DNA of 64,000 nucleotides from Chiloscyllium plagiosum. Taxonomy: Eukaryota. Of this stretch, positions 14,870 to 47,009 are shown piece after piece. Under the pieces are notes generated by a model. That model saw only the letters and a program-made list of their open reading frames with translations, did no database searches and was not told the origin of the DNA. Where the stretch lies: positions 14,268,076 to 14,332,075 of the forward strand of contig NC_057738.1 in NCBI RefSeq assembly GCF_004010195.1, given 5' to 3'. Position numbers and translations under genes: made by a program. Within the stretch, counting starts at the first letter, position 1; each line of letters begins with the position of its first letter.

Positions 14870-15432
14870 GACATTTCCCATCTCTCAAACACTCCCTGTC
14901 TATTTCATTTAAAGTCCTCCCTCCAGCCCTAGTTGTTCAATTCACCAGGACAGATCTCAGCATGGCTCAAGTGAAACCCATCCCACTGGAACAACTGCCT
15001 TTGATCCCCGTACTGTGCCAGCGTTTCACGAACTGGAACCTATTCCTCACACAGCAGTCTTTGATCTACACATCTAACACTTTGACTTAATTTCCTCAAT
15101 GTCAGTGGCTCAAATCCTGAGTTCTTACCTTGGAGTAAAACATAGAACTGTAGATGCTGTAAATCTGAAAAAGAACACATAAATTGCTAGAGAAACTCAG
15201 CAGGTCTGGTAGCATGTGTGGAGAGAAAGCAGAGTTAATTTCGAGTCCAGTGACCTTTTTTTTCAGAACTGGACTCAAAATGTTAACTCTTTCTATCTAC
15301 AAATGCTGCCAGACCTGCTGAATTTCTCCAGCAATTTCTGTTTCTGATACTTTGGAGGTTTTGTTTTGTAATTTAGCTCCTAACTGTTCAATCTCTTTCA
15401 GAAGGATCTCCTTTTTAGTCCTATCATTGTCA
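14870..15432 (-). mobile_element. CR1 ORF1 (SGNH esterase-like) remnant, interrupted by a fold-back PLE insert
   Basis: Minus strand reads NDRTKKEILLKEIEQLGAKLQNKTSK and LFQWDGFHLSH (cf. DGLHLN of CR1 ORF1 esterase). Confidence 0.65.
15136..15347. mobile_element. Fold-back PLE family D mini-element
   Basis: Arm aaattgctagagaaactcagcaggtctggtagcat is inverted relative to atgctgccagacctgctgaatttctccagcaattt. Pivot near 15266 in decayed hammerhead sequence. Imperfect TSD taccttggag/tactttggag. Confidence 0.75.
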
Positions 15433-15584
15433 ATGAATGGAGATCCACTGCAGTTCTCTTCAATGCAGCACTGGCAGGTGATCCAGCAAAACTTCCCCCT
15501 GAGGAGTCAATACAGTTGTCTTAATGTTTTTTCAGGCAGCACATGAGACACCCACCAATCATGACTCCAGTATTTTAACAATGA

Positions 15585-15900
15585 GAACAACTTGTCCTTA
15601 TAATAGTTAGATGTAATAAATCATTCCAAGGAACAATAAAGTAGTCAAACAAAATTGGAAACCACATAAGATGATATTATGGCTGGTGTATAACCAAGCA
15701 CTGACTGAAAGAGATGGGTTTTAAGTAGCAATTTAAACAAGGAGAAAAGAGACAAGTTTTAGGGGGGGAATTCCATTGCTTAGGACATAGACAGCTAAAA
15801 GCATAGCCGACAATGTTGGGATGAAAGGAACTGAGGATGCAAAAAGAGACCAAAATTGAAGGAACACTGAGTTCCAACAGCTTGTAGTTTTCGAGGAAAT
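15585..15900 (-). mobile_element. L2-like LINE 3' end
   Basis: Minus strand reads GYAFSCLCPKQWNSPP...YLKP, resembling the AFSxxxPxLWNSLP...LKTxLF end of L2 ORF2. Confidence 0.6.
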
Positions 15901-17084
15901 TACAGAGAAATTGTGGGATGAGGTCATGGAGGGGTTCAAGCACAAATTCTAAACAGTCAAACTGCAGTTCGTCCAAACTATTAGCTTCAATGCACTGCAA
16001 GGAAGATAATTGCACAATGTATCTCTCTGTAGAAATAAGTTCATCCTTGAACAGACTTCAAAATAAACGAGCTTTTAAACAGACAACCTTTTTTTTCACA
16101 TTTGCAGTGCTACTGAGGCCCCAGAGAGCATCTGACTTTACATTCTGCTTGGTGAGATTTGCTATTTTAGGTCAGTACTGGTGTGGCAGGCATTTAGCAG
16201 ATGGTGCTGTCAGAGAATGTATGCACTGCCTTCCAAGCCCAAAATAAACATCTGCTGTAGCTGCAGCCAGTGACATGAGAAAAGAGCAGACACCATACGA
16301 AAACCAGTACTCGTCCTTTGTGCCTTCAGCAAGTGCACACTCGAGCCACATTTTAATTAAGTGCAGCACATTTTTTTGCCCTGATTCTGCTTTAGGGACG
16401 TGCTGAGTGGATACTGAGTGTCCTGACTGATGAGGGATGTTTCACTTAAAGTGGTAATAAGATGATAATGAGCAGACGTATCATCTATGACCTGAGACCA
16501 AACTGGTTGTTAAATTGCAAACTGTAGTCTGGGATTTGGGATTTGAGTTTTGAATGTGATACCTAAGTCTTCTGTTTAGTGGGACTTGCAGCTAAGTTGG
16601 TTGCATTTTAGAAACATGCAGTCTTGCCTGTGGATGTACACATTACCCTGAGACCTTAACATTAATGAACATTCATTGTTAAAACATTTCGCTTTTTAGT
16701 GGAACCCTATGAGTTTGATCCTGAGCAGTGTGCTGAACTGTGAAGCCGGATTTTGTGGGTATGGTCAGAGTTCATCCTAGTCCAGCTTTTAAAAGTTGCC
16801 ACAATGGCATAAGTATTTTCCCCTTCTGCCAGTTTCCCTAATTTCCTTTAGTTCAAACTGATGTGTCGCCGACAGTAAAAACCAAGGGCCGAGAATACAA
16901 CTTGGAAACTTGATCTACAACTTAGAATTTTCTAGATTGAGCCTTAAAAGCCCATCAGATGCAGTCATCATGTAAATATAAATAGGAATAGGCAATGGAA
17001 AAAAAACAGCAAATCATTTCCATACTGTTTAAAAAAAAGGTTGATGGACCTTTGATTAAAGTATGATGTTTACACAGGGTATCA

Positions 17085-17540
17085 AGTCCAGCTCTTGACC
17101 ACCATGTGACTGAACAAACCAATTCCCAGTCCCTAGATCTTTGGGCACATTGGGTAGAATGTCCCACAATGCAACAGGATTTGCTTCCTTTTCTTTCTTC
17201 CTCCTCTGCTGCTACTGTCCTTTATCATTACGGTGTCATGCCTCAAACATGTTGCGGCTTGAGAGACAAAATGTCTCCATTTTGAAAATCTAGGAGCTGG
17301 CTTCTTCCAGTCAATAACATCAATGTTATCACATTTCAAGCTGAACATCACAGTGTCTTTGAAGCATTTTTTTTCTCTCAAACCCCAGAAAGTTGAACAC
17401 CTGACAGGTAAGAAACGAGGACCTGGTATCATCTGGACGTAGTATCCAGTCCATTGAAAGTGATTTTTGCTTAGCTGCTGTGGAGTTGGTCTCGTGAAGG
17501 AAGCTAGCATTTTATGCAACTGTTTTCCCATCAAATCCAG
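17085..17540 (-). mobile_element. RTE-clade LINE C-terminal remnant
   Basis: FQWTGYYVQM (cf. LRWAGHVVRM), KKCFKDTVMFSLKCDNIDVIDW...SKWRHFV, and a terminal Cys/His remnant MCPK...GIGLFSHM. Confidence 0.7.
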
Positions 17541-17654
17541 AGTTCATGACAGAGAATTTGCTGCTAAAATGTCTTTAGTACTCGTCTAATACATAGTTTA
17601 GGTCTTTTTTTTTTCTATTTCTGCCTCCTCCAGCAGGATGCCACTACCAAACAC

Positions 17655-18070
17655 CAAAACCCTCCCCTCCCTTGTCAGCATTCTGCAGGGACTGTTCTCT
17701 TCCTGGTCCACGTTTCCGTCACTCCTAACACTTCCTCACTCCCTCATGGCATCTTTCCATACATTCTTGGAAAATGTAACACTTGTTCTATAACGTCCTC
17801 ACTCTTCCTTGTCCAAGGCCCCAAGCACACCAGCAGAATTTTACTTGTACATCTTTCAATCTAGTCTACTGCATTTGCTGCTCACAATGGCATTATTTTC
17901 CACATTGGCAAGACAAAATGCAGGCCAGGTAACTGCTTTGTGGAATACCCCCACTCTGTCTATAGCAAAGACACTGGCTTTCCAGTTTTTTGCCATTTCA
18001 GTGAAGCATCTCGCTCTCTTGCTAACATTTGCGTCCTCCAATGAAGCACAGTGCAACCTCAAGGAACAAA
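17655..18070 (+). mobile_element. Old PLE GIY-YIG endonuclease remnant
   Basis: FTCTSFNLVYCICCSQ...IGKTK. Collinear with 49990-50480. Confidence 0.7.
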
Positions 18071-18072
18071 GG

Positions 18073-18410
18073 ACGGCAAGGTGGTTCAGTGCCTCATAGC
18101 ACCAGGGACCGAGATTCAATTCCAGCTCTTGGGCAACTGTCAGTGTGAAGTTTGCACATTCACCCTGTGTCTGCGTGGGTTTCCTCTGAGTGTTCCAGTT
18201 TTCTCCCACAGTCCAAATATGTGTCAGTTAGGTGGATTGGCCATGGTAAGTCCCCCCAGTATGTCCATGGATGTAAGAGTTGGGTGAATTTGCCATGGGA
18301 AATGCAGGGTTATAGGGATGGTGTGAGAGTCTGGGTGGGACTGTCCTCAGAGGATCAGTTCAGACTCGATGGGCCAAATAGCCTCTTTCCACACTGTAGG
18401 GATTCTATGA
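18073..18410 (+). mobile_element. HE1-type SINE
   Basis: tRNA-like head, body gtgaagtttgcacattcaccctgtgtctgcgtgggtttcc, tail ttccacactgtagggattctatg. Confidence 0.85.
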
Positions 18411-18689
18411 TCTTTAACGTACATCAGGCTAATTTCTTCAGGACTTCCTAGAAACCTCACTTTAGGACTTTCTGTTCAAAATCCATCTATCTTCCATTCT
18501 CTACATAGCCCCAGGTCAATATTTGTATCATAAAGTACAATAACAAGGAAGAAATGCCAAAGTTTCATAAATCACAGGTAAGAGCACATTTAGCTCAATT
18601 CCAGACACCATGCTTTAGAAATAATGTCAATAACTTGAAGATGGCACAAAGGAATTTTCTAGATCAGCAGCAGAGATGAGTGGTTTAAA

Positions 18690-19505
18690 TTGTGGAATGA
18701 CTACAGAAGCTGCAATTATCCTCTTTGAAACAGAGAAGAATAAGTGGAGATTTAGTGAGCTAATGAAAAACTGTTGGAGGTTTCAATGGATGGGATAGAG
18801 GGAACCATTGTTTCACCACAGAAGGACAATGATTTGAATAATTGGCAAAAAAGTTAAAGAATTTGAGAAGGTTTTCAAGAATTCTTTCTCTGATTGGGTG
18901 CTGGAAACAAACTTGCCAGATGGATTGGATAATTATCGAAAAGAAATTAATTGTATAGCTGTGGGGATCAAGAGTGGGACTAATGGATAGCTCTTTCAGG
19001 GACCAGTCATGATGCAATGGGCCCAATGGCCTTCTCCTATGCTGGAGGTTTCCACTCGTACCAGGATGTTGTTTGGTCTGCAGGGTTTGGACAAACTCAG
19101 ATTGGTTTCCTTGCAAAGATGGAGGCTGAGGGGCAATCTGATAGACGTCTACAAAATTATCAGAGGCATAGATAGGGTGGTTTGTCAGTGGCTAGGGTGG
19201 AAAGGTCAACTACAAGAGGGCAAAGGTTCAAGGTGAGGGTGATAGTTTTAGGGAGAAGTTCAGGAAAGATTTTTCATGAAGAGGGTGGTTGGTGTCTCTA
19301 ACACACTGCAAATGGAGGCAGTGGAAACAGGCATGTTGGCAATTTTTAAGGCATATCTTGATGGACACATGAACGAGAGGTGAACAGAGGGATAGAAACC
19401 ACGCATTGGCAATAAGTAGCGGATCTAAATATGAATTAGAATCGGCACAGGCTAATGGACCAAAAGGCCTATTCCTGTGCTCTATTGAAATGTATTGTAT
19501 TGTAT
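18690..19505 (+). mobile_element. Two adjacent CR1-group LINE 3' fragments
   Basis: ORF remnant LDKLRLVSLQRWRLRGNLIDVYKIIRGIDRV. 3' ends gggcccaatggccttctcct (~19035) and gaccaaaaggcctattcctgtgct (~19480). Confidence 0.75.
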
Positions 19506-20169
19506 GAACAAGAGAAGCTTATCTTCTCCCACCCTCTATCTGATATCAAAAAGTCACTCTGAAGTAAACTGTGCTGTAACTGCTCATTTGAAGAGATTTT
19601 CTATCTCTGCTGTTAATCATGCAGAACAGGAAGCCATTCGGTCCACCATATATAGACCTGATCTGTGAAAAATCTATCCATTTCCACCCATTCCCCTGCT
19701 CTTCACTCATAGGAATGTGAGCTTTTACCTTTCAGTAAATGTCAAGTCCTGCTCAAAAGTTATTCTTATCTGCTTCCACAACCCTTTCAGCCAATGAATT
19801 CAGGACCGTACAAATTCACTGGGTGGAAAAGGAATTCTCGTCCCAGCCGGTCGTTTTAGTCAACAATTTTAAGTCGGTGTTCCTTGATTACCAACTCAAA
19901 TGCCAGTGAGAATGGGTTCTACCTGTCTCGACAGATGTCCAGAAAAAGGAGCTGTGCTTTGAGGAGAGGTAGAGAAATATTCCCTGGATTTCAGAAATTG
20001 TTTTATATATAGCATTTATAGGAAGTTTGGCAAGGTAAATGTTGGGATGACCTTTTCTGCCGGCTGGGAAGTCATGGTGTCAAACTAAGAGGTTGTTCAA
20101 TTCAAATAGAAGTGTGTAGGAACTGAAAGGGCTGTGGATCCTTGAAGACACCTCCTGATACTCAGGCAG

Positions 20170-20450
20170 AGGTGGGTACTGCAGATGCTGGAGATTAAAG
20201 TGGTGCTGGAAAAGCACAGCAGGTCAGGCAGCATCTGAGGAGCAGGAACTCGATGTTTCGAGCAAAAGCCCTTCATCACAAATGAGCTCATTCCTGATGA
20301 AGGGTTTTTGCCTGAAGAAGGGCTCATGCCTGAAACGTCGATTCTCCTGCTCCTTGGATGCTGCCTGACCTGCTGCGCTTTTCCAGCAACACATTTTCAG
20401 TTTTTGCCTGAAACATTGATTTTCCTACTCCTCAGATGTGCCTGACTTAC
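20170..20450. mobile_element. Fold-back PLE family A element with a younger family A fragment nested at 20311-20400
   Basis: Left arm minus, right arm plus, pivot aatgagctcatt (20281-20292). The nested piece is flanked by gtttttgcctgaa at 20304-20316 and 20400-20412. Confidence 0.8.
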
Positions 20451-21438
20451 TAATAGTCAGGTCATTCAAGCCAGAGATTGACAGCTTTTGGATGCTAAGG
20501 GCCGCAAATCAAAGGTTATGGGGAGAGTGTAGAAATGAGATGTTATCAAACACTGGAGCAAGCCTGAGTGACCTAAAGGTCTACTTCTCAATTTCTAACA
20601 TTTAGCAATCTATTAAAATCAGAGAGAAATTAACAATTTTCACATTTGTCATGGCTTCATAAGAACATTTGAGAAGATTTCAGTTGAGGGTGTATCTAAT
20701 AACACAGTAGTCAGAATAATGTGGAGCATGGTGAGAGATGTGGCAGAGTATTGGAAGAAGTCCAGCCTGGTCTATCTTGGCATTGGGATAACTTAGAGCA
20801 ACTTTTAATTAAGTCATGGTGAGATTCGTGCTGGACAGCAATAAGTTGCCTATTAACGGGGATTAGTGCTGGTTAACAACCTTATTAACTGCATATCTCA
20901 CCTCATTAATGTACGGCTTTCAATCATACCATTCACTGAAAGCAAGCTAGACACTGAGAGTTGTCCACACAGAGGTCAGTGTGGGTTCCTGATGACTTCA
21001 GCTCACTATTTTCTCCAAAGGACCTCCTTGTGGGGCAACAGGCACAAACATCCAAGGGTGTACTCCATGGGCACCAGCTACATGTGTCCCACATCCACAG
21101 ATACTGGTATCTGACATGTGCCAACATCTAATTACAGTCACCACACATCTCCAATCCACTTCCAGGATGTTTCTGCACATCAATGCTACACCTCCGAGAT
21201 CAAAGGCAGCTATCATTGTGATGCTGCTGCAAGGATACTGAGTGCTCTGGGGGACACACAACAGTCTCATAGATTGGATCAGGCTGCTTCGTCACCTGCT
21301 TGCTTGCTCTCTTAGCTCTCATTCAGTTTGAGCCTACCTAGATAATCACAATTCGGAGATGCCGGTGTTGGACTGGGGTGTACAAAGTTAAAAATCACAC
21401 AACACCAGGTTATAGTCCAACAGGTTTAATTGGAAGCA

Positions 21439-21473
21439 CACTAGCTTTCGGAGCGAGGCTCCTTCATCAGGTG
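21439..21473 (-). ncRNA. Minimal hammerhead ribozyme motif (family B)
   Basis: Reverse strand cac CTGATGA A GGAGC ctc GCTCC GAA AGCT A gtg: intact core, 5-bp stem II, palindromic stem III, cac/gtg stem I. Confidence 0.8.
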
Positions 21474-21500
21474 ATTGTGGAGGGCTCGATCGTAACACAG

Positions 21501-21968
21501 NNNNNNNNNNNNNNNNNNNNNNNNNNNNNNNNNNNNNNNNNNNNNNNNNNNNNNNNNNNNNNNNNNNNNNNNNNNNNNNNNNNNNNNNNNNNNNNNNNNN
21601 NNNNNNNNNNNNNNNNNNNNNNNNNNNNNNNNNNNNNNNNNNNNNNNNNNNNNNNNNNNNNNNNNNNNNNNNNNNNNNNNNNNNNNNNNNNNNNNNNNNN
21701 NNNNNNNNNNNNNNNNNNNNNNNNNNNNNNNNNNNNNNNNNNNNNNNNNNNNNNNNNNNNNNNNNNNNNNNNNNNNNNNNNNNNNNNNNNNNNNNNNNNN
21801 NNNNNNNNNNNNNNNNNNNNNNNNNNNNNNNNNNNNNNNNNNNNNNNNNNNNNNNNNNNNNNNNNNNNNNNNNNNNNNNNNNNNNNNNNNNNNNNNNNNN
21901 NNNNNNNNNNNNNNNNNNNNNNNNNNNNNNNNNNNNNNNNNNNNNNNNNNNNNNNNNNNNNNNNNNNN
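21501..21968. other. Assembly gap (468 N)
   Basis: Run of n. Confidence 1.
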
Positions 21969-22179
21969 CTGAAGTGTTCCCCAACTGGGAGGGAACCCTC
22001 CTGTCTGTTGATTGTTGTGCGGTGCCCATTCATCCGTTGTCGTAGCCTTTGCTCGGTTTCCCCAATGTACCATGCCTCAGGGCATCCCTGCCTGCAACGT
22101 ATAAGATAGACAATGTTGGCTGAGTCACATGAGTACCTGCCATGTACATGGTGGGAGGTGTTCCCACGCGTAATGGTGG

Positions 22180-22519
22180 TATCTATGTCCACAATCTGAC
22201 ACGTTTTGCAGTGACCACCGTGACAGGGTTGTATGGAGTTGTTCTGAGAGCCGGACAAACTTTGCTCACTGTGAGGCAGCAGTGCTAACCACTGTGCCAC
22301 CATGCCGCCCTTGAACTGAGAAGCTTGCTGGACAATTTCAGAAGGCAGTTATCTATGTCCACAATCTGACACGTTTTGCAGCGACCACCGTGACAGGGTT
22401 GTATGGAGTTGTCCTGAGAGCCGGACAAACTTTGCTCACTGTGAGGCAGCAGTGCTAACCACTGTGCCACCATGCCGCCCTTGAACTGAGAAGCTTGCTG
22501 GACAATTTCAGAAGGCAGT
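22180..22519. repeat. 170-bp tandem duplication
   Basis: 22180-22349 versus 22350-22519, about 2 substitutions. The unit is PLE 5' end + HE1 head + flank. Confidence 0.95.
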
Positions 22520-22650
22520 AAAGAGACAATCACATTGCTGTGTGTCTGGAATGACATCCAGATCAGGTAACAGCAGTAGACCTTCCTTCTCCATCTGACA
22601 TGAGTGAATCAGATGGGTTTTTAATGACAATCGGAAATAACTGATGTTTC

Positions 22651-22952
22651 AGATTAGATTAGCTTCCCTTCCGTGTGGAAACAGGTCCTTCGGCCCAACC
22701 AGTCCATACTGACCCTCCAAAGCGTAACCCACCCAGACCCAATTCCCTCTGACTAATGCACCTAACACCAAGGGCAATTTAGCACGGCCAATTCACCTGA
22801 CCTGCACATCTTTGGATTGTGGGAGGAAACCGGAGCAAACCCACGCAGACACGGGGAGAATGTGCAAACTCCACACAGACAGTCTCTCAAGGCTGGAATC
22901 AAACCTGGGACCCTCGTGATATGAGGCAGCAGTGCTAACCACTGAGCCACCA
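22651..22952 (-). mobile_element. HE1-type SINE
   Basis: Complete reverse-strand copy ggtggctcagtggttagcactgctgcc...acctgtttccacac...taatctaatct. Confidence 0.9.
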
Positions 22953-24256
22953 ATTCCAAATATATTGTTTGAATTTAAATTCACAAACTGTTATAATGGG
23001 GTTTGAACTTAATGGCTCGGTTTATAGATTACTAGTACAGTGACATTACTGTCATCCCACCACCTTCGCTTTGTAATTGCCTTCCTTTAGATTTATGGTT
23101 GAGTTTGGTGGACCCTTTGAGGAATTGGTGAAGAGAATTTGGATTTTCTATATCCTTCAAGAGAGTGTCAAACACTTGAACCCAGGCCTGACTGTAAGGA
23201 CAAGTGGAAGCCTTGCAGAAACCCAAGCTTTGCCAACTTTTCCTAACAGTTTCCATTCGCCTATGTTTCAGAATTGCAATGGCCAACCTGTGGTAACCTT
23301 GCTGACTTTCAGGGCCTCATCACCCATCTGTCAATTCAAGAGTCCAGCAAGCAAATTAATTGTCTGAGAGGCCATAAACTAGGCAGTGAAAACTTGTTCT
23401 GTCACCTGAAAGTTGAATATATAGTTTAAACATTATTTCTGTGGCTTACTGGACCTGTTAGCGAGCTTATGCCAGAAATAGCCTGCCTTATCATCTAGGA
23501 CCTAGTCCCAAGCACTTTCTCATGAAATTTATTCTGAACTGCCTAGTTATATTGGCCATATGCCAACCCATTTTGCACAATCACATCTAATTGTGAAGTT
23601 GGGTAATCATTATTTTCCTGGTGCCAGCTACAGTCAAGGTTTAAGTATGAGTTGACAGATTGTCCTTAAAGGGACCAACCAACAAGGTAAGTTCTCAAAA
23701 TACCCGCCCCTGAGCGTGGATCCAGCAGAAATTTCCACTGAGCTCATATTTAAAGAATTTTGATCATTGTCACTTTGGCTGTTGATTCCTCCCCGACAGT
23801 TAGCCCAACCTAGTCAGCGATCTTCCTCCATCCACCCTCAGACTACTGCGCTCTGAAAGTGCTGGAAAAGCTCTGTTGCAGTGATCCCACCAACTATCTT
23901 TTCTTCTACACAGACCTCCGAAACTGGAAGTCAACATTTCAAATAGTGACAGCATACCAATCATTGTGTGTTCGCACCTAGAGTGGCTAAAACAGTCACA
24001 CAGCACTTTCGGCAGCATCTAGAGCAGGAAACGGCTTTAAATCCAATATCAAACCTTCAAAACTGAACAGGATTAGAAAATGGTAGTCCACATGCCATTG
24101 TCAAAGGGTGGGGAGGAGCAAGTGGAACAGATGGTGAAAGCAACCAGGGTAAAAGACAAATGGAGTGCTAGGGGCAATTCAGGAGCGATATTTTCTGTAG
24201 AATGGGCCTTAATAGTAGCTATGAATAATAGAAAATAGGTTATCTCTGCTCTCCAA

Positions 24257-24316
24257 GGAGAAAGTGAGGACTGCAGATGCTGGAGATCAGAGCTGAAAAT
24301 GTGTTGCTGGAAAAGC
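24257..24316 (-). mobile_element. PLE family A terminal 60 bp at the left inversion breakpoint
   Basis: ggagaaagtgaggactgcagatgctggagatcagagctgaaaatgtgttgctggaaaagc, the reverse complement of 16-75. Confidence 0.85.
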
Positions 24317-24616
24317 CTTACAGCACCAGGGGGTTCCTGCGTTCAATACTAGCCTTGAGCGACTTTCTGTTTGGAGTTTGCACATTCTCCCTGTATCTGC
24401 GTGGGTTTCTATCAGGTGTTCCAGTTTCCTCCCACAGTCCAAAAACGTGCAGGTTAGGCCATGCAAAATTGCCTCATAATGGTGTGCAGGCTACATGGAT
24501 TAGCCAGGGTAAATGCAGGATTATGGGGTGGGGTTGTCTAGATGGGATGCTCTTCAGAGGATCACTGCAGACTCAATAGGCCGCATGGCCTCTATCTACA
24601 CTAGGGATTCTATGAT
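24315..24616 (+). mobile_element. HE1-type SINE lacking its 5' head; inverted duplicate of 25112-25361
   Basis: About 250 bp near-identical to the reverse complement of 25112-25361, including private mutations. Retains the 3' tail. Confidence 0.9.
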
Positions 24617-24958
24617 TTGGATGATGGCTCTGAATCCAGGAGTCCTCATTTTGGTATGTGGGGATTGCAGAATATCGTCCTTATGCCAGAATGATAAGAC
24701 ACACAGTGTGTCCTGAATATGGGCCAAGTTTTCATGTAGTGGACAAGATGCAAAAAAGACGGGCTGTTCATCAATGCCTGCTTGAAAATGAAGCTGCTGC
24801 AATGCTAATAGTACCCTCAGCCATGAGAATTGTAGAGACCGGATTGGAAGAACGTTGACTTGTTGGTGTATTGGTAGCCAACTGGATTGGTTAGATTCTA
24901 TAGATTTGAATATGGGTGTGGATATGTGGTTTATGGGATTGGAGAGCAGAGATAGGAC

Positions 24959-25110
24959 CTGAAAATGTGTTGCTGGAAAAGCGCAGCAGGTCAGGCAGCA
25001 TCCAAGGAACAGGAGAATCGATGTTTCGGGCATAAGCCCTTCTTCAGGAATGCTTCAGGCTTATGCCCGAAACATCGATTCTCCTGCTCCTTGGATGCTG
25101 CCTTGGATCC
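24959..25110. mobile_element. Fold-back PLE family A mini-element at the right inversion breakpoint
   Basis: ...gagaatcgatgtttcgggcataagcccttcttcaggaat | gcttca | ggcttatgcccgaaacatcgattctc...; pivot at the hammerhead. Confidence 0.85.
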
Positions 25111-25111
25111 A

Positions 25112-25395
25112 TGATCCTCTGAAGAGCATCCCATCTAGACAACCCCACCCCATAATCCTGCATTTACCCTGGCTAATCCATGTAGCCTGCACACCATTAT
25201 GAGGCAATTTTGCATGGCCTAACCTGCACGTTTTTGGACTGTGGGAGGAAACTGGAACACCTGATAGAAACCCACGCAGATACAGGGAGAATGTGCAAAC
25301 TCCAAACAGAAAGTCGCTCAAGGCTAGTATTGAACCCAGGAACCCCCTGGTGCTGTAAGGCAGCAGTGCTAACAACTGAGCTATTGTGCCACCCC
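25112..25395 (-). mobile_element. HE1-type SINE lacking its 3' tail
   Basis: Head at 25361-25395, body truncated at 25112. Confidence 0.9.
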
Positions 25396-28253: not shown

Positions 28254-28463
28254 TTAAAAATCACACAACACCAGGTTATAGTCCAACAGGTTTAATTGGA
28301 AGCACACTAGCTTTCGGAGCGACGCTCCTTCATCAGGTGATTGTAAGGAGCGTCGCTCCGAAAGCTAGTGTGCTTCCAATTAAACCTGTTGGACTATAAC
28401 CTGGTGTTGTGTGATGTTTAACTTTGTATACCCCAGTCCAACACCGGCATCTCCAAATCATGA
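28254..28463. mobile_element. 210-bp fold-back PLE family B mini-element with 12-bp TSD
   Basis: TSD ctacttaaaaac at 28242-28253 and 28464-28475. Arms 28254-28330 and 28345-28421 are inverted with one mismatch around a 14-nt loop. Confidence 0.92.
28305..28339 (-). ncRNA. Minimal hammerhead ribozyme motif (family B)
   Basis: Reverse strand cac CTGATGA A GGAGC gtc GCTCC GAA AGCT A gtg. Confidence 0.8.
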
Positions 28464-33462: not shown

Positions 33463-33590
33463 GGTTCTAAAGGATCACTGGGCCTGAAACTTTAACTTTG
33501 ATTTCTCTCCATAATGCTGTCCACTGAGTTTCCCCCAGTAATTTCTGCTTTTGTTTCTGATTTCCAGCATCCTCAGTTCTTCTGTTCTTT
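33463..33590 (+). mobile_element. PLE family D 3' terminus (decayed)
   Basis: gatcactgggcctgaaactttaac...aatttctgcttttgtttctgatttccagcatc. Confidence 0.65.
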
Positions 33591-33889
33591 TTATTTAGTA
33601 TTTAACTCATTGCCACATTTCTTCCAGGCATGCCCACATTGAAGAAGTTCTGCCCCCCTCCCAATCTTTTTTCCTTTTTCACCATCATTAATTTCACTGT
33701 CACTCTTGGTGTTTGACCAGGTATTTGCTAAAACTCATTTCCACAGTAACATCACAATCTTCACTGACTGCCACCAGCTCAAACTCACCCCATATGGATT
33801 CCAACTCAAGTTTCTTCCTTCATGACAATAGACAATAGACAATAGGTGCAGGAGTAGGCCATTCTGCCCTTCGAATGTTATGAATCCAC

Positions 33890-33995
33890 CCCAGTTCTGA
33901 AGAAGGGCCACTGGACCTGAAACATTATCTCTGATTTTTCTCTATAGATGCTGCCAGATTTGCTGAGTTTTTCCAGCAATTTCTGTTTTTGTTTC
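33890..33995 (+). mobile_element. PLE family D mini-insertion beginning at the hammerhead
   Basis: gtt CTGAAGA A GGGCC actg GACCT GAA ACAT T atc, followed by gatgctgccagatttgctgagtttttccagcaatttctg. Confidence 0.7.
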
Positions 33996-34254
33996 TTTGC
34001 AATATATGATTTCCAGAAAGAATTATTATCAGACAGTGGGCCTCGAACTTTAACAGTAATTCCAGAAAGTTCATGTGATCATTTTTCCATTGTATCTATT
34101 CTTGAAAGGAGAGGCAGAAAGAGCATAAGAATTTAGACTAAGAATTAGCTCTACTCAGTTACAGCCAACACCATTGAATATTGAATATTGGCTTGAACTT
34201 GTGAATGGAGAGGAGGTTAAAAAAAGACATATTAGTTTTAATTCATGACCACCA

Positions 34255-34919: not shown

Positions 34920-35135
34920 GTGTCATAGTACAGAAGAGGTCCTTTGGTCCATTGAGTCTGTGCTGACAAGAATATACTACTATCTACAGTAGTCCCACTT
35001 TCCTGCACTAGGCTCAGAGCCTTGAATTTTATGACATTTCAAGTGCTCATCCAAGTACTTCTTAAATGCTTTGAGGTTTCCAGCCTCAGTTACTCCAGAT
35101 AGTGCATTCCAGATCCCCACTATCCTCTGGGTGAA
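34920..35135 (-). mobile_element. CR1 3' end nested in CR1
   Basis: FTQRIVGIWNAL...FKKYLDEHLKC. Same family as 10355-11310. Confidence 0.75.
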
Positions 35136-38028: not shown

Positions 38029-38125
38029 TTCTGGATTAGTGGTGCTGGAAGAGCACAGCAGTTCAGGCAGCATCCAAGGAGCTTCAAAATCAACGTTTCG
38101 GGCAAAAGCCCTTCATCAGGAATCC
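38029..38125 (-). mobile_element. 97-bp PLE family A mini-insertion with 14-bp TSD
   Basis: TSD tccatgaaaagtgg at 38015-38028 and 38126-38139. Confidence 0.9.
38090..38123 (-). ncRNA. Minimal hammerhead ribozyme motif (family A)
   Basis: Reverse strand attc CTGATGA A GGGC tttt GCCC GAA ACGT T ga, with intact core. Confidence 0.75.
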
Positions 38126-41100
38126 TCCATGAAAAGTGGGACTAGTGTAGATAAGCAGTTGATGATCAGCATGAACCTAATCGGCCAAGGATCTCTTGCA
38201 ATAAAACAGCAATGACTTTAAAAGTAAACTACTAGAATTACATAGACTAGGTACAGAGAAACTTGGGGGCGCATGTGGTATGATGAGATACAGGTCAATC
38301 ATGTATCTGACTACATCATTCTGATGTTAGTAAGAGAAAAGACACCAGTCGAGAATGAGCAAATGAATAGAGGGTCTTAGAGACTGCACTAGAGCTGGAT
38401 TTGATAAACTATTAGTTACAGATAAAAGTAGAGGAGTTTAACAGTACACAAGGAGTTAACAAGCCTTACTTAGTGATAAGATATAGACCATGTCTGGGAT
38501 AGTAGATGTGCAGGTCCCTATACTCTGATATCCACAGATTGCTTTCTCAATATATAGGTAGATGAATTGGCTTATAACACAAGATCAAGAAAAAGTATTA
38601 AAATGAAGCATGTGAATAAACTGAGTAGTTAATCCTCACAGACAGAGGCATTGCATTAAGATTGGATTACAACATGTTGCACAAACTGGCATGATTCCAA
38701 GCTGCCTTACTTAATTTGCACCACTGTTTCTAACCTATATCTCATTGTTTACTGTGACAAAAGTTGATGCTCATATTCTTTTTGTTTAAAACAATCACCA
38801 AGGGGTCTCTTTATGAATCAACTTAACCATGGAGCTTATAGCTATTTATCAGTTTTCTATTTATCATGTCTCTGTCCAGTGTAGGGTTAGATGGATCCAA
38901 CAGGCAGAGTATTTACCAACTCCCAAAGGAGGTGTTGTAAACAGGTCATTTTGATTCATCCAAATGCAAATTGGGTGGACATGTTTCAGAAAATATCACT
39001 TTAGTACAGCATAAAAGTAAGTTGAGACATGACATATGGTCAGTGCAGCATGGTTAGGAAGAAAAAGCTGGCTTTCAATCTATGGTTGCCAAAACTCACC
39101 AGTGAGGTTTTCCTTCTTCATGTCTGAGCTTGTTGTGAACTAGTTGGTAGAGTGAAACTGCTATCATTAACCAACAGTCCCATTGATGTGTACATCATGA
39201 CTGAAAGGACAGTAGAAGGCCAACTACATGGACCTTTTCTTGTCTCGCAATTTAGCTCCAAGATGGTGTGACCATTAACAAAGATAATGATGAGTGTTAA
39301 TGTTGACTATTCAGACGGGGATGTGCACAGGTGCTTAGGGATAGAGGAATTATGGCACTTGAAGGCATGTGTTTTTCTGGGAACTTAAGTAAAAGGCATG
39401 TTGGGAAAATCAAAGTGTGATTCTTGGCACCAGAAACTGTCATACCACCCACTTTCCTATACGCTTGAGAAACTGTGCCTCTCAGAGCACCATATTCTAG
39501 TTTGAGGCATCAGGCTACCACTGCTCACTTCCCCAGCCACTTCATTCAAACCTGTTTGCTCTAAAAGCCTGACCTCTGCCTCCTGTTCTTGGGAAACATC
39601 ACCTCACTTCAGTCCCTCAGAGCTCAATCTCCATGTAAAGGGCAGAGACTCGGGAACTAGCTTTCCCAGGATCCTTCCCATTCCTGTTGCTGAAGCTTCA
39701 AGGATCTGAATTCACACGGACAATGGTAACGCATGCTGATATCCTTTTGACTAGAAATCTATCTTTTGGCAGATCCAGCATCTCATCTTGCCTGCACTGT
39801 CTGATTGTTAGGCAAACCCAGCTTCAGAAATGTTAGTGTAAATAGCCATAGCAAAGCCCTCTGCAGATTCCAACTGTATCCTGATCCATTAATCTAGTAG
39901 GAGAGGCAATGAACTTCCTACATATTCTGTGAACTGAAAAGTTTGCTTTGATTCAGATGAATTACTAGAACTGTGTGATGGTATTCCAAATACCACAAAG
40001 TGAAAAGACACATAAATTTGAAAATTGCTAACTACTAATGCTTTGCTTATGAAAATCTTTGTTGTTTATGTGAGAGAAAGGTATTGAAAAAAACCCCAAA
40101 TTGTAGCTGCAGCAACATCTGTTACAAAGACTACCACAAATATCCAAGTTAAAGTACCTTTAAAATGCTGCAAGGCATGAGTGGCACAACTAAGTGTGCT
40201 ACTTTAGTTACATAGAGTCTATGGCACTGGAGTTGGGCCCTGGGCCAAACTGACCTTTGGTTGGTCTTATACACACTCTCAAAAGTCTCTTCAAATTCTG
40301 ATCGCACTCTGTCCCATATTCACCTCCCTCCTATTCCATCAAAAATCCCTTTAAATAAAGTTATCTGTGCCTGCCACTCCGTGTGAAAATGAGTTGCACA
40401 TTTTCACTTACACCGAGCACAGAGCAAGGAAGCAAAATTCAACAGCATTAATCTTTGGTTTATGTGTTTACAAACATACGTTTCAATGCTTGATTGCACC
40501 AGTTATCCATAGTTCTGCCTTGACATCAATGGCACATTGTACAATTGGTCCTACATTTACTCCCTGAGCTAAAAGAACTATGTCAAGTGCTTGTTTTCAT
40601 GGTGAGATTAAACTCTAGACTTTAATTAATTTCTGGTCTGTATGCAACTAACTCTCAGTCCTTCTACTCGTTTGCCTTTCTTTTAATTGTACTTTATCGT
40701 TCAATAATCTTATAGTCGCAGGATTAATCCAGATGGGAGGATTTCAAGGGTGCTTTCACTGTTAATGAGAAAGTAAGTCGCCAATTATGTGTACTCTGCA
40801 GCTTTTGTAAGACCTTAATCAAATAAAATAAAAACCGCACGCAGCATTTTGAGGGATATTTAGGAAGGCTGTGTGCAGTTTACTAATTCAGCTATTCACA
40901 CTTTGATTACACAGCTTCTGGTCATCTGTTCAAGTGCAGCTGCTCCATAGAAACGCAAATACGAACTTTATAATTCACCAGCTGTCCCGTCTCACACTTG
41001 TTTTGTGCTGGGCAGAATTCAGGTCAGGCACAGCTTTATAGACAGAGAAACAAAAAGAGATGGGGAGGTTTTGTTTTGTTGCCGAGTTGTGGCATAATTG

Positions 41101-41624
41101 AAGCTTTCTATCATTTAATTTATAACACAGGTTCCCAAAAAAAAAAGCAAAATCTCATGAGCTCTTCTGTTCATAGAAATGTTGCATAACCAAAGCCCAT
41201 TGAAATCACAGTTGGGAAAAAATGACAGAAGATGTTTTTTGAGCACATGTTTGACAGAAACTTGTAGAACTGAAGTGAAGAGGAAGTGAAGCCTGAGTAG
41301 GAGTAAGTACAGCTGAAATGATAAACAAGCACCTCTTGAACGATATTGGATAATGAAGTTGGACAGAGCTGTCAATGTTTGGGAGAGCTGAACAGGTCAA
41401 TTTTCTGCTCACATGTTCCTCATGTCAGGCTTCACCTGCTGGGTGAGTGCATTAATAAGACTCCACACAAGGTCTTCATTCATGATTAATTCTTTAGCTG
41501 TAGCCAGTGGTCACCTGAACTGACTTGAATCATCTGAGGAGTCTGGAGAGGAATTCTCCAAAGAGTTTGACTCTGTTCAGCTTTCCCTTTTCTCCCAGGA
41601 GATTAGGTAGTTATAGTAGAGGGC

Positions 41625-42168
41625 CGAATGGTGGGTGGGTGATTGAAGCGGCACAAGTGAAGCACAGTAGGTCAGTGGGATCGATTCCACCCACAGGTGA
41701 CTGTCTGAGTGGACGTTTTCCCCTTGTCTGGGTGGGTTTCCATTGGGTGCTTATTTTTCTCTCACAATCCAAAGATGAGCAGGTAAAGTGGATTGGCCAT
41801 GCTAAATTACCTAGGAGGAAGTGAGGACTGCAGATGCTGGAGATCAGAGTCGAGAGTGTGGCGCTGGAAAAGCACAGCAGGTCAGGCAGCATCCGAGCAG
41901 CAAGAGAATCAATGTTTTGGGTATAAGCCCTTCATAAGGAATGAGGATTCTTTTGCTCCTCAGATGTCGCCTGACCTGCTGTGCTTTTCCAGCACCACAC
42001 TCTCGACCATGCTAAATTACCCTGTGGTGTCTAGGAATATGTAGGCTAGGTGGATTAGCCACAGAAAATGTGGGATTATGGGTACAGGGTAGGACCTGGG
42101 CAAGATGCTCTTCAGAGGTTTGGTCAGGACTCAGTCACCTGCATACACACTGTAAGGGTTCTATGATT
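41625..42168 (+). mobile_element. HE1-type SINE interrupted by a PLE fold-back
   Basis: Body ctcacaatccaaagatgagcagg...gattggccatgctaaattac resumes after the insert; tail cacactgtaagggttctatg. Confidence 0.8.
41812..42006. mobile_element. 195-bp fold-back PLE family A mini-element with 15-bp TSD
   Basis: TSD ccatgctaaattacc at 41797-41811 and 42007-42021. Arm tcgagagtgtggcgctggaaaagcacagcaggtcagg is inverted relative to cctgacctgctgtgcttttccagcaccacactctcga. Confidence 0.9.
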
Positions 42169-42297
42169 CCAAGTGGGTGTCTAATCATGTTGCTGTAACC
42201 ATCATGGCTCCAGGCAATATTTTCTTAAATGACTAAGTCCATGTGTTGATGGTGATGTTGATAACGCCACAATATTGTTAAATAGGGAATTCCAACA

Positions 42298-42780
42298 ACA
42301 TAGAGATGTACAGCACGGAAACAGACTCTTCAGTCAAACTCGTCCATGCCGACCAGATATCCTAAATTAATCTAGTTTCATTTGCCAGCATTTGGCCCAT
42401 ATCCCTCTAAACTATTTCTAATCATATACCCATCTAAATGTTATAATTGTACCAGACTTCACCACCTTCTCTGGCAGCTCACTCCATACACGCACCACCC
42501 TCTGTGTGAAAAAGTTGCCCCTTAGGTCCCTTTTTAGATCTTTCCCTTTCACCTTAAACCTATGCCCTCCAGTTTTGGACTCCCCTACCTTGGGAAAAAA
42601 ATACCTTATCTATTAACCCTATCCATGCTCCTCGTGATTTTATAAACCTCCGTTATATCACCCTTCAGCTTTGACACTCCAGGTAAAATAAGCCCAGTCT
42701 ATTCAATCTCTCCCTATAGCTCAAACTCTCCAACCCTGGCAACATGCTTAGAAATCTTTTCTGAACCCTTTCAAGTTTGT
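42298..42780 (-). mobile_element. HER1/CR1 LINE 3' end
   Basis: Reverse complement of the 5115-5653 family (catagagatgtacagcacggaaacagac...). Confidence 0.85.
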
Positions 42781-44444
42781 TAACCAAGCGAAGTTGAAGG
42801 AATGCTGATATACGTCCAAATCAGAGGGAAAGCTGTTCTGAACACATTATGAGTCTGTTTCCCTCTTTCCAGAGAACTAGACAGGACTAACAATTTAGAT
42901 TGGTTACTGTCCCCCTCTGAGCATGCATTTATCCTCAGAAATGACAAGTGAGAAATGAACTGGAATGCTTAATGCCAGATGGGTACTTCACTTTGCCATC
43001 ATTTCTCTTCTCAAGCTTTCCCTTAATGTTTACGTGGCATTGGAGAAGACAAAAACTGCAGCATGTTCAGATCTCATGGGTTTCGAATTCATTTTGGGTC
43101 CATCAATTCAGGAGCCAGTATGGCAATGATTGTATCACAGTACGAGAACACTGCTGAAGCTTTAATGATTCTCAGCATCTTTTAAATCCAATGACTAGCT
43201 GCTTTGTTGGAATTGAGTACATTAAATTATTAATAGCCCTTTAAATACAGCCATAATGCAACAACTAGCCATTATTAGGTTAAAAGTAAAAAGATACAAT
43301 TTCTGTGTAAACAGCCCTACTCTTTAACTGTGCAAAAAAATCACAGACATTAGCAGACAACAGATTGCGAGAACATTAATTAGTTCATCTCTTGTATTTA
43401 TTTACAGTTTTATGAGATCCAATGGAAATCTGGAGCTGCTGATTTTCTTATCATGAAAGCATTAATCTTGCAAGCACAGGAGGATGCCATTTGGCCCATT
43501 TTGGCTGTACCTGCTCTTTGAAAAATTTGTTCCAGTCTCCTTCTCCTTCCCCACATTGTGAGTTTAAAAGCAAAAGAGGAAAAGACTATCCATCCCCAGC
43601 AGGGCTAGAATTCAAGTGTCCACAGCAGGTGCTGTCAAATACTTCCTGCACAAAGCCCCGTTTACTCCATGATGGTCTCTAAAAGACAAATTATTGATCC
43701 TTTCACCAGCCTCAACACCTTGTCAGCCTGTGGTGCCGGAAGAGGGTTTCTGAGTTGGTGCCGGTGGGGTGGCTTGGTGGTGTTTCGATATGAAAAGATG
43801 GACCCATTCTGTTCAATGCTGCCAAGGCCGCTACATCACCATAGCTACCATCCTCACCCACTGGCCTCTTTTGTTAACTGTCAACAACACAGAATTGGCA
43901 TGGCCTTATCAATACGTCACCTCGTATATAATCTTCTCAAAGCTGATTGCTGTGAATTAGCAACTTAAAAAAAAAATTACGGAGGGGGGCACCTGCTTGC
44001 ACTTAACTGGTACAGCAGCGACAAAGGAGATCCCTGCAGAAAATAGCCACGCTCTCATCCAACTCAAACATAACATATCCGGTGGTTTATCCACACTGTG
44101 CACGAGCATCTGTTTTCGCTGCTTCCCAAATATTTGACTGTGTGAGATGAGTGTCATTGATTAATTCTGCATTTAACTGCCGCAAAGATTTATTTATTTC
44201 CCTTGCACAATGATAAGGCTTTATTAGCCTATCAAACATTTCGACAGTTAAACATGTGGTAATTGTTTTTAATTCACCCAACCACTCTGTTTATGTTGGG
44301 CATGTTGAGTAGCCATTAAAAATGCACCTGCCTTCAAAGCTGTGACAATAACGTACAGGTTTGTATCTGTGCTTCCAAGTCTGTAAACATGGAATAAGAA
44401 ACCAAGCATCTTGCAAATCAAGTCAAGAAATATTGAGCTCGCAA

Positions 44445-44975
44445 TTATACTGTGCCTTGTATGACCTCAAAACGTGGCAAAATATTTATAGCCAATGAAG
44501 AACTTTTGAAGTCACTGGTGCAACAAAAAAAATACAGCAGCCAAATTGCCCATAGCAAGGTTTCATAAACATTGATGTGATGTGATAATGACCACCTAGT
44601 CAGGTTTAGCTGTGCTGACAGAGGAATTATATTGGTTAGGATACTGGGACACTCCATTGCTCCCCCTACACCCACCTCCTGTCCTGAAGAAGGGTTACAC
44701 CTGAAACATCGACTTCTCCACCTCCTGATGCTACCTGACTTCTTACATTCTTCCAGCCTCCTGCCTGTCTTTTCTTCAAAATAGTACCTGGGATCATTTA
44801 TATCCACCCTTGAGGCAAATTGAGACCTTTAACATCTCATCCAAAAGAAAACCAACTCCAACCTCAGGGACTGACTGTGTCTTTCAGTACTGCACTGACG
44901 TGGCAGTATAAACCTTGAGGTCAAATCATTGGAGTAGGGCTTGAATTAATATAATCTCCAGACCCAGAGACAAGA
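44445..44975 (-). mobile_element. Deu-domain SINE (SacSINE1/AmnSINE1-like)
   Basis: Reverse strand cagtgcagtactga...ttttggatgagatgttaaa...ggtggatataaatgatcccaggtactattttgaagaa resembles the Deu core as I recall it. 3' part gacttcaaaagttcttcattggctat. Confidence 0.65.
44660..44770 (+). mobile_element. PLE-end mini-insertion (family E) with hammerhead at 44681-44713
   Basis: gtc CTGAAGA A GGGT tac ACCT GAA ACAT C gac, then ...gatgctacctgacttcttacattcttccagc resembling the A/D termini. Confidence 0.65.
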
Positions 44976-45069
44976 GCCATATCCATTGGTGTGAATTATG
45001 GGTACCAGCTATAAAAATAACTACCAGATGAAATGTGTCAGAGAAATACTGTCACAGATGTACAAATAT

Positions 45070-45320
45070 TTAACAATGAACGCCATCACCTAAAAGAACA
45101 AGGACAATGGGTATCATCAGCACTTCCATTTTCATTTGAATCACTGCCTGTTTATTGATGCTACATCAGAATCCTGGAAGTCTTGAGCTAACAACACTGT
45201 AGGAGCATCTCACCACACGAACTGCAGCTGTTCAAGAAAGAAGCTCAGCACCACCTTCTTGAGGGCCATTAAGGATGGGAAATACATGCCAGCCTTGCCG
45301 ATGATACCTGTGTTCAAAAG
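45070..45320 (+). mobile_element. Old LINE 3' end
   Basis: gttcaagaaagaagctcagcaccaccttcttgagggccattaaggatggg. Same family as 28480-28920. Confidence 0.6.
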
Positions 45321-45864
45321 AACACAGGAGCAAAAGGTGTACAGAGGAATTTGATACCTATCTAACACATCAAGGGTGTAAGTGTAGGCTCAGAGTGAAA
45401 TAGTTTTGTTGCTGGTGTAGCGTAAACAAAACCTGAATGTAATTGTCATTTCCATGCTTCACACCTGGTTTAACCTCCAAACATTGGATCATTGTGATGG
45501 TTGAATGCAGTTAATGTGTTAATGTGAAGACAATGTCAACAGTAATTTGTATATCTTTTGTTTTCAGTTTAGACAGAAGTTACTTTTGGATGAAACAAGC
45601 AATACTCATATATCTAATTTCTTCAGGTAAGCAATTGTGCAACTTCTGCGGTGTAGCAACAGTGCAATATGTTAATAATAATGGTCAAATAATCAATTGC
45701 TTATCAGAGATTGATTAACTCAGCTGGCGAGTTCATTTAGAACAGTAAAACACATTACAAGTTTTGAAGCAGACACATGCACCTCTCTGAAAGGCAAGCA
45801 ACGCAGACACCATCTCTCTCCTTTCTAAAAGAAAATTTAACTATATACAATAACAAATAAACCA

Positions 45865-46790
45865 ATATGGTATAGTTAGTAAGTTTACAGATGACACCAA
45901 AATTGGAGGTGAAATGAACAGTGGAGAAAGTTACCTCAGAGTACAACAGGATCTTGATCAGATGGGCCAATAGGCTGAGGAGTGGCAGATGGAGTTTAAT
46001 TTAGATAAATGTGAGGTGCTGCATTTTAGAAAGACACATCAGGACAGCACTTAGACACTTAATGGTAAGGTCCTGGGGAGTGTTGCTGAACAAAGAGACC
46101 TTGGAGTGCAGTTCATAGTTCCTTGAAAGTGGAGTTACAGGTAGATAGGATAGTGAACAAGGCATTTGGTAAGCTTTCCTTTTTGGTCAGTACATTGAGT
46201 ATAGCAGTTGGAAAGTCACCTTGCAGCCGTCTAGGACATTGGGCACTTTTGGAATACTGCGTGCAATTCTAGTCTCCCTTCTATATAAAGGATGCTGTGA
46301 AACTTGAAAGGGTTCCAAAAAGATTTAAAAGGATGTTGCCTGGGTTGGAGGGTTTGAGCTTGAGGGAGAGGCTGAACAGGCTGGGGCTGTTTACGCTGGA
46401 GGGTCGGAGGGCTTACTTTATTGAGGTTTATAAAATCATGAGGGGCATAGATAGGGTAAACAGACAAGATGTCTTCCCTAGGGTGGGGGAGTCCAGAATT
46501 AGTGGGCATAAGTTTAAGGGGAGAGGGGAAAGATTTAAAAGAGATCTAAGGGGCAACATGTTCATGCAGAGAGTAGTGCAATGCATGGAATAAGTAGCCA
46601 GAGGAAGTGGTAGAGGTTGGTACAATTATAACATTTGAAAGGCATCTGGATGAGTATACGAATAAGAAGGGTTTAGATGGCTATGGGCCAAATGCTGGCA
46701 AATGGGACTAGATTAATTTGGGATATCTGGTCGGCATGGACGAGTTAGACCCAAGGGTCTGTTTCCGTTCTGCATATCTCTATGACTCTA
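45865..46790 (+). mobile_element. HER1/CR1 LINE 3' ~920 bp
   Basis: SKFTDDTKIGG (RT xADD-type motif), WQMEFNLDKCEVLHF, KLERVPKRFKRMLPGLEGL; (ctctatga)n tail. Confidence 0.92.
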
Positions 46791-46823
46791 AGTCTCCTCC
46801 AGATAGACAAGTTAGATAGTTTT

Positions 46824-47000
46824 AGAAATTGCTGGGAAAGCTCAGCAGGTCTGGCAGCATCTGCGGAGAGAAATCAGTGTTAGCATTTCAGATCCAGTGA
46901 CTCTTCCCACTTCTGAGGAAAGGTCACTGGACTCGAAACATTAACTTTCATTTCTCTCCACAGATGCTGCCAGACCTGCTGACCTTTCCCAGTAATTTCT
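46824..47000. mobile_element. Fold-back PLE family D mini-element
   Basis: Arm agaaattgctgggaaagctcagcaggtctggcagcatctg is inverted relative to cagatgctgccagacctgctgacctttcccagtaatttct. Pivot ~46908, just before ctgaggaaaggtcactggactcgaaacattaac. Confidence 0.85.
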
Positions 47001-47009
47001 GTTTTTCTT

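Follow-up and report, generated by a model that had tools for sequence, protein, structure and literature searches.

Endonuclease-containing (EN+) Penelope-like elements (PLEs) are described as insertion units with a head-to-head inverted copy of the pseudo-long-terminal repeat (pseudo-LTR, pLTR), a tail of 30–40 bp at one end, palindromes at the junction and target-site duplications (TSDs) of about 8–16 bp (PMC8557442, PMC3846280). The published passages on these units propose self-priming and give no distribution of junctions. We analysed a 64,000-nucleotide window of the Chiloscyllium plagiosum genome (contig NC_057738.1, positions 14268076-14332075; genome size 3.56 Gb), in which an earlier note had pointed to six short palindromes pivoting at a hammerhead ribozyme. 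These palindromes are the unit of those passages in its smallest form, and differ from it in having just two arms of 90–130 nt, in their number (about 240,000, extrapolated) and in a sharp edge linked to a promoter. We consider it probable that they are short insertions of Neptune-type PLEs, each with a site-specific junction and two outward-facing arms, and that each arm is a target-primed cDNA run off the capped 5' end of the RNA, 4–8 nt upstream of the hammerhead core. Positions within elements are counted from the C of CUGANGA (0); on this scale the predicted hammerhead cut lies at +28 to +30.

Other described systems resemble these insertions in part. Truncated PLEs carry minimal type-I hammerheads in their pLTRs, with dual opposite-strand motifs 100–700 bp apart in Schistosoma; the relevant passages propose that the ribozyme processes RNA, and map no junctions (PMC4209133). 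PAc, a Poseidon element of Anolis studied in vitro, is alike in that two start sites bound the tail and both target strands are nicked and extended; its protein is a predicted dimer, its start sites lie in the junction between pLTR and open reading frame (ORF), and hammerhead cleavage is dispensable. Neither inverted stubs nor the running off of cDNA at the cap is a subject of the portions of that account considered here (PMC11167929). L1 twin priming, in the passages on it, is alike in the priming of both target ends, a discrete TSD, microhomology at the inner junction and an extra G at full-length 5' ends. There, however, the two arms copy adjacent parts of the RNA (PMC11702581), whereas here both copy the same part and the cap would be reached after about 100 nt. 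Non-LTR retrozymes are likewise non-coding, hammerhead-bearing and PLE-derived, but the description at hand is of head-to-tail tandem units with a full hammerhead each (10.64898/2026.07.22.740005); here the arms are head-to-head and the second core is often missing. Architecture and hammerhead motif are therefore not new. A full-text literature search found neither junction clustering at a transcript start, nor the cap G, nor the strong-stop reading given below, which subscription papers, Repbase notes or supplements may hold.

Parent elements and structure of the insertions

Frequencies were measured in an unbiased sample of seven blocks (1,415,598 called bases, or 1.42 Mb), six at arbitrary places and one around the window, in which 493 arms were scored. 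Upstream extents were obtained from pair-based and pattern-based counts, and whole-genome figures for the edge and the extra G are exact sequence-pattern counts. The 30 best matches to the B1 copy, picked by likeness, were excluded from edge statistics.

A descriptor of the minimal hammerhead matched 96 times in 1.42 Mb, nearly always in one of four families, A, B, D and E. The features present are CUGANGA, stem II, GAAA, a 2-nt palindromic stem III (ACGU or AGCU), UH and a short stem I. By sequence, these hammerheads are of the minimal type I, and their self-cleavage is a prediction; the proposal that the arms are PLE ends carrying such motifs thus held. For most families, no active structure resulted when the cores were folded as monomers, an outcome to be expected of minimal motifs. 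Searched against Rfam, the palindromes matched no hammerhead model and gave only sub-threshold microRNA (miRNA) hairpins, so that stubs may be mis-annotated as miRNA hairpins or as miniature inverted-repeat transposable elements (MITEs).

Upstream of the module lies the parent ORF, with reverse transcriptase (RT) and, C-terminally, a GIY-YIG region, as in EN+ Penelope-like elements. A family-B copy matched RVT_1 of Pfam (E=5e-10), and YIDD and VYxIxC...YIGET motifs occur in families A, B, D and E. The GIY-YIG piece had no match in Pfam, and its assignment as an endonuclease follows the motif. A Cys-rich linker between RT and endonuclease is given as a feature of the Neptune clade in the passage concerned (PMC8557442); a CxxxxCxxC linker was found in A, B and D, not in E. 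On this motif, we provisionally take A, B and D to be Neptune-type, and E to be Poseidon-type. The pLTR is present at both ends in partial tandem, its 5' copy continuing into the ORF (loci L256 for D, L258 for E, L265 and L267 for A1, L288 and L289 for B1). Because full-length copies carry the +0..+125 module at their 5' end, from which it runs into the ORF, the module serves at once as the element's 3' end and as the 5' untranslated region of the RNA. The ATG lies at about +121 (B1, L289), +166 (A1, L265) or +170 (D, L256), whereas the ORF of PAc starts inside the hammerhead in the account cited (PMC11167929). In family D, a segment of the module at +35..+49 (for instance at window 33930-33950) is branch-point-like and pyrimidine-rich, ends in CAG and resembles a splice acceptor just after the hammerhead.

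In the sample, a head-to-head partner was present within 60 nt for 121 of 230 minus-strand arms, and a tail-to-tail partner for 2 of 223. The 3' ends of arms formed two peaks per family, at about +85/+97 and +120/+125, and a tail of 35–40 nt was carried by one arm of a pair: exactly one tail was found in 100 of the 121 pairs, two in 2 and none in 19, where independence predicts 59, 22 and 39. A TSD with at most one mismatch flanked 60/121 pairs (control 2/121), none of them among 19 old D pairs; in young pairs, an exact TSD of 8–16 bp flanked 23/34 (control 0/34). Its length is variable rather than fixed. A tail at one end, an inverted truncated copy and a variable TSD are the features of an EN+ Penelope-like unit. 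A MITE would have a TSD of fixed length, a fixed internal sequence and transposase-type ends; here the TSD runs from 8 to 16 bp and nearly every junction is different. The 95 short pairs in 1.42 Mb correspond to about 240,000 in the genome, a rough extrapolation from seven blocks. The stubs amount to hundreds of thousands of fossil intermediates that preserve, to the exact base, where both cDNAs began and ended, and this record bears on how PLEs make pseudo-LTRs, tails and inverted ends, as well as on the role of the hammerhead.

Among 83 short pairs with one tail, 80 distinct junctions were found, and therefore the palindromes form anew at each insertion. The single recurrent junction (A0 -1/+9, four copies) falls on 2–3 nt of microhomology, and was also found with the tail on the other arm. 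Two copies with the same eight-variant haplotype in both arms had different junctions. Over 112 pairs, the joint was an overlap in 51, carried inserted bases in 57, and had neither in 4. The amplifying master copy with a junction shared between loci, which the earlier note had raised, does not agree with these data. Nor does its ribozyme-delimited, non-autonomous class, if this is taken to be self-amplifying: a junction common to the copies was not found, one source haplotype gave different junctions, and the TATA-like box lies outside the stubs, in which no search for an internal promoter was made.

Position of the arm ends

Between -15 and +14 fell 83/130 paired arm ends in family A, 28/56 in B, 23/38 in D and 0/18 in E; for solo arms the figures were 52/124, 16/45, 24/65 and 2/17, and solo copies have the same edge as paired arms. 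Junctions are clustered near the core, not even, with 89 of 224 paired A, B and D ends in -13..0 against 5 in -60..-14. The density of these ends per nucleotide was 0.11 in -60..-14, 6.4 in -13..0, 3.1 in +1..+15, 1.55 in +16..+26, 2.0 in +27..+35 and 0.6 in +36..+60. On the upstream side the ends stop at a hard wall, behind which they are trimmed back, and the cut site shows at most a shoulder. In 77 of 112 pairs an arm runs through the core and stops between +4 and -13; in a further 17 pairs it extends past -13. This distribution does not support the idea that the ribozyme sets the junction, as ends lie upstream of the core; neither the cut site nor the dimer interface in stem III (about +24) is where they fall. 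All 14 arms of the Poseidon-type E0 pass through an equally good core. We propose that the hammerhead is near the pivot only through being first in the transcript.

The two arms of a pair are not independent in length: among the 112 pairs, 95 were short-short, 10 long-long and 7 mixed, where independent stalling predicts 1.6 long-long and 23.7 mixed. Among 94 pairs, the tailless arm reached further upstream in 53, the tailed arm in 25, and both equally far in 16. As the tailless arm often reaches beyond the tailed one, neither arm is a copy of the other, and simple fold-back cannot be the rule. Lineage variants were shared between arms beyond the level of shuffled arms in A, A0, B, B1 and D (p 0.001-0.004), the A0 score being 0.023 versus 0.005 in shuffled arms; for A1, p was 0.077. 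Such sharing would fit a single source RNA for both arms.

The wall is at -4 in A0 and D and at -8 in B1. It falls on an A in a pyrimidine-A context, which is the initiator consensus, about 30 nt after a TATA-like box. This box, TATAAA or TTTATC-like, is found at -33 in D, at -34 to -36 in A types (-35 in A0), at -38 in B1 and at -40 in B. Genome-wide, B1 copies reaching -6, -8, -10 and -13 numbered 5672, 4733, 2989 and 2601, with the steepest loss after -8; A0 copies reaching -2, -4, -6, -8 and -10 numbered 61612, 43555, 26146, 22181 and 16000, with the steepest loss after -4. Where the base before the B1 A at -8 was non-native, it was G in 948 copies and A or T in 169, compared with 178 and 282 at the control position before -6 (odds ratio 8.9). 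Just 8 of the 948 extra-G copies continue as upstream sequence, so the extra G is not a lineage variant. For A0 the base before -4 was G in 7390 copies and A or T in 4742, a count that has no positional control. In the local sample, the extra G was present in 16/31 versus 20/86 (p=0.006). In full-length L1 insertions, an extra G is a trace of cap copying in the passage concerned (PMC11702581), and a transcript start inside the pLTR is documented in passages on Penelope and Chlamys (PMC2377424, PMC8557442). Since the G is extra at the edge, and the edge shifts with the TATA-like box, we read it as a cap signature, and the edge is likely the capped start of the element RNA. Reads of a related sample on the A0 copy (155/3406 with loose ends before -4, plus opposite-strand joints there) are mostly genomic copies inside host RNA, so what they confirm is the wall with its joints rather than the start site.

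Several observations weigh against a capped start, or against two cDNAs from one RNA. The read piles on A0 and B1 listed no place where many molecules begin. Some of the extra G may be contributed by the partner arm through microhomology; in local solo stubs it was found in 3/14 of A types (some of them A1, whose native base is T) and 2/3 of D. The A0 counts fall steeply a second time between -8 and -10 (28%), lineage variation accounting for at least part of this, and the boxes of family A are not canonical TATA. For B and B1 the unbiased sample gives few ends, scattered over -1 to -12. In family E, TATAAA is present at -47/-53, but no edge corresponds to it. Only 17/95 solo stubs had a TSD (control 0/95). 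Shared variants would also be expected if one lineage is active at a time, so that a single RNA for both arms is unproven. Finally, subfamily calls of the two arms differed in 7/56 pairs, one a nested case and the others with short overlaps or small margins.

Two sets of longer copies were seen besides. Several Poseidon-type copies (e.g. L258 3622 and block C3 23124-23465) end at -44 to -52, at the TATAAA box and not 30 nt after it. Long-long B pairs (e.g. block C21 53357-54211) often have near-equal extents (-344/-344, -195/-189, -99/-108), as would be the case had a single broken RNA end terminated the two cDNAs.

Formation of the junction

In the mechanism we favour, the pLTR promoter would start a capped RNA at the edge, and the element protein, probably a dimer, would nick both target strands about 8–16 bp apart. 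Inside the module's 5' copy, two cDNAs would then begin at two sites, and both would reach the cap after 90–130 nt, often copying it as an extra base. Trimming of the two cDNA ends and their joining, by microhomology or end-joining, would give a head-to-head palindrome, and one cDNA joined alone a solo stub.

That RT starts near the capped 5' end is indirectly indicated by the edge and the extra G. On the B1 5' end, reads of run X20 had poly(A) loose ends after +57 and +60 (382 and 462 of 2948 reads), with AATAAA/ATTAAA at about +40 upstream and no A-rich DNA behind. Both RT start sites lie downstream of these family-B poly(A) ends. Were the element mRNA to end at +57/+60, RT start sites would exist in the 5' copy only, and a long copy would require a jump through the -8..+60 repeat that the two ends share. 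In keeping with such a jump, 5–6 of 19 deletion joints beside the module in A and B copies (a small set from partly selected loci) break on the downstream side at -12..+6.

In LTR elements, the promoter lies upstream of a terminal repeat that contains the start and the poly(A) site, priming occurs near the 5' end of the RNA, and a short run-off cDNA, the minus-strand strong-stop DNA, undergoes the first strand transfer. We tentatively suggest, as one possibility among others, that the pLTR is similarly built as U3-R-U5, with TATA box, capped start, poly(A) site and RT start sites; two cDNAs would begin in the 5' copy, reach the cap as run-off products and have to jump via the terminal repeat to the RNA's 3' end, and the hairpins would be failed jumps. 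The system would differ from LTR elements in being target-primed at two nicks, with no tRNA primer and no RNase H or integrase; the transfer step itself is conjectural. If true, this model explains pLTRs, partial tandems, tails and inverted ends by one mechanism. Against the jump, the X20 reads come from another sample, possibly from another species and from a few host transcripts; none of the six loose ends shown for A0 was a poly(A) end (157 others are not shown); the A and D modules have no AATAAA; and RT may start directly at a read-through 3' copy, as PLEs can use unprocessed RNA. The stub ends argue against a ribozyme-set junction, place the transcription start, and make such a strong-stop and strand-transfer model testable in the existing in vitro system.

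The templates could instead be short capped RNAs from promoter-bearing solo pLTR copies, mobilised in trans in the manner of short interspersed elements (SINEs). This is compatible with the run-off mechanism in all but the source RNA, and is a possibility we take seriously without preferring it. Thousands of copies retain upstream sequence (2601 B1 copies to -13, 16000 A0 copies to -10), solo pLTRs can drive transcription in Penelope of D. virilis, and trans-mobilisation by pLTRs is known, according to the passages on these points (PMC2377424, PMC3846280). However, the family-B RNAs found among the reads terminate at +57/+60, short of both start sites, and short polyadenylated RNAs of this kind would be useless as templates.

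Alternatively, RT could stall at or just after the folded hammerhead, or a bound protein, on a long RNA, the two cDNAs being joined at the stall. In A0 and D the edge (-4) borders stem I on its 5' side, a pause would also account for the 5–6 internal deletions breaking at -12..+6, and folding of the PAc hammerhead is protein-assisted in the part of the study concerned (PMC11167929). We nevertheless find stalling unlikely. In B1 the edge is at -8 though stem I has only 3 bp, the extra G is confined to the edge, arm lengths are coupled, 14/14 E0 arms read through, and a structure should block synthesis at its 3' side, not once it has been passed.

Self-priming fold-back of one cDNA or of antisense RNA, as proposed in a passage of PMC3846280, is very improbable as the origin of the pairs, and so is an assembly artefact. 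Local fold-back looks likely at 25058-25103, and many assembly gaps lie beside long copies. In 53/94 pairs, however, an arm holds sequence that the other lacks, and sequence unique to both arms excludes simple fold-back. Flanks are unique and have TSDs, the arms differ by 2–20%, and opposite-strand joints occur in raw reads (3–4 reads each, library chimeras being possible).

According to the dimer model of the earlier note, a pair of RNAs held together by the palindromic stem III is reverse-transcribed from the two target nicks, with the ribozyme as the meeting point; in a variant, the template ends at the ribozyme cut. Two target nicks priming two cDNAs are retained in the run-off mechanism, but a meeting point set by the ribozyme is not, and as a main route the model is largely refuted. 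Stem III palindromes are present, minimal hammerheads cleave weakly as dimers in the passage on them (PMC4209133), and there is a slight shoulder at +27..+35 (2.0 ends per nt versus 1.55 and 0.6 beside). Most arms, however, extend beyond both stem III and the cut site, the junctions lack symmetry around a point near +24, the edge is common to solo stubs, two-tail pairs are almost absent, and no convincing mixed-source pair was seen. In the portion on PAc, insertion did not require cleavage and no reads ended at the cut site (PMC11167929). Amplification of a few master palindromes as MITE-like or retrozyme-like units is the least credible explanation of all: A0 -1/+9 recurs 4 times among 83 and 40/40 scored matches to the B1 copy (selected by likeness) are full palindromes, but 80/83 junctions are distinct, the recurrent one sits on microhomology with the tail on either arm, TSDs vary and no promoter box is inside the stubs.

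Features of the window

All six inverted repeats described by the earlier note are present where it placed them (Table 1). Two are less simple than it had supposed: 20170-20450 is compound, and 24959-25110 is only one breakpoint of a larger event. The inversion point lies within about 15 nt of the core on both arms in five of the six, the remaining one being 41812 (-8/+28). In the 20170 palindrome one arm ends at -5 and its partner begins just before the core; at 24959-25110 the arm ends are -5/+9. Three palindromes have TSDs as claimed, of 10 bp (one mismatch), 12 bp and 15 bp; a search at the 46824 palindrome found none. Two long inverted pairs that the note omitted have junctions far from the hammerhead (-113/-1174 and -175/-863), and the long arm of the first includes the final part of the RT region together with the GIY-YIG region (50206-50592).

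Table 1. Palindromes, stubs and related features, in window positions
Feature	Position	Strand	Details
Family D mini palindrome	15136..15347		tailed arm, - strand, 15136/15146-15271, ends at -5; tailless arm, + strand, 15268-15346, starts at +13
TSD of 15136..15347	15126-15135/15348-15357		10 bp, 1 mismatch
Compound, older family A palindrome	20170..20450		left arm 20172-20284; right arm 20287-20310 plus 20401-20445
Younger A0 solo stub	20311..20400	+	-1..+88; inside hammerhead of older right arm; 13-bp TSD 20304-20316/20400-20412
Tailed A0 arm	24256..24325	-	+125..+59; left breakpoint of event that includes 24959-25110
Inverted TSD of A0 event	24241-24255/24940-24954		15 bp
Target segment	24315..24564		250 bp; inverted duplicate at 25112-25361, 100% complementary
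Tailless A0 arm	24955..25103	-	to -5 at 25052; 5-nt insert; short sense piece +9..+54 (25058-25103)
Family B1 mini palindrome	28254..28463		tailless arm, - strand, ends exactly at -8 (28344); tailed arm, + strand, +6..+123
CUGAUGA core of B1 palindrome	28336-28330	-	
TSD of 28254..28463	28242-28253/28464-28475		12 bp
A1 solo stub	38029..38123	-	starts at -4, G before start; same edge, no partner arm
Family A mini palindrome	41812..42006		tailed arm, - strand, +126..-8; tailless arm, + strand, +28..+83
TSD of 41812..42006	41797-41811/42007-42021		15 bp
Family D mini palindrome	46824..47009		- strand +87..+4; + strand -5..+96
Long family A inverted pair	49315..50889		junction -113/-1174; 12-bp TSD
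Family E (Poseidon-type) inverted pair	54238..55453		junction -175/-863

The stretch 24241-25394 represents a single A0 insertion in which both the TSD and a target segment are inverted (24565-24939 is apparently inverted target DNA) and 250 bp of SINE sequence are duplicated perfectly in inverted form, either by PLE-driven local rearrangement or by mis-assembly. If it is a rearrangement, the same insertion events can invert and duplicate target DNA. The SINEs of the window resemble what we take to be the HE1 family of sharks.

Stubs and mini palindromes nested in older copies of the same family (loci L207 and L208, and window 20311-20400) suggest self-targeting. At 56051-56975, a family D copy has an inverted upstream piece (56309-56487, about -190..-5) that stops at the same edge, and pieces of flank are duplicated (56051-56093/56267-56309 and 56120-56268/56499-56647). 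At 33470-33818, a family D piece runs from +6 past the tail and about 260 nt into the beginning of the ORF, with another D stub then at 33892-33996. An inverted pair of SINE pieces, presumably HE1-like, spans about 600 bp at 1172-1806, and a 170-bp tandem duplication of 98.8% identity lies at 22180-22519.

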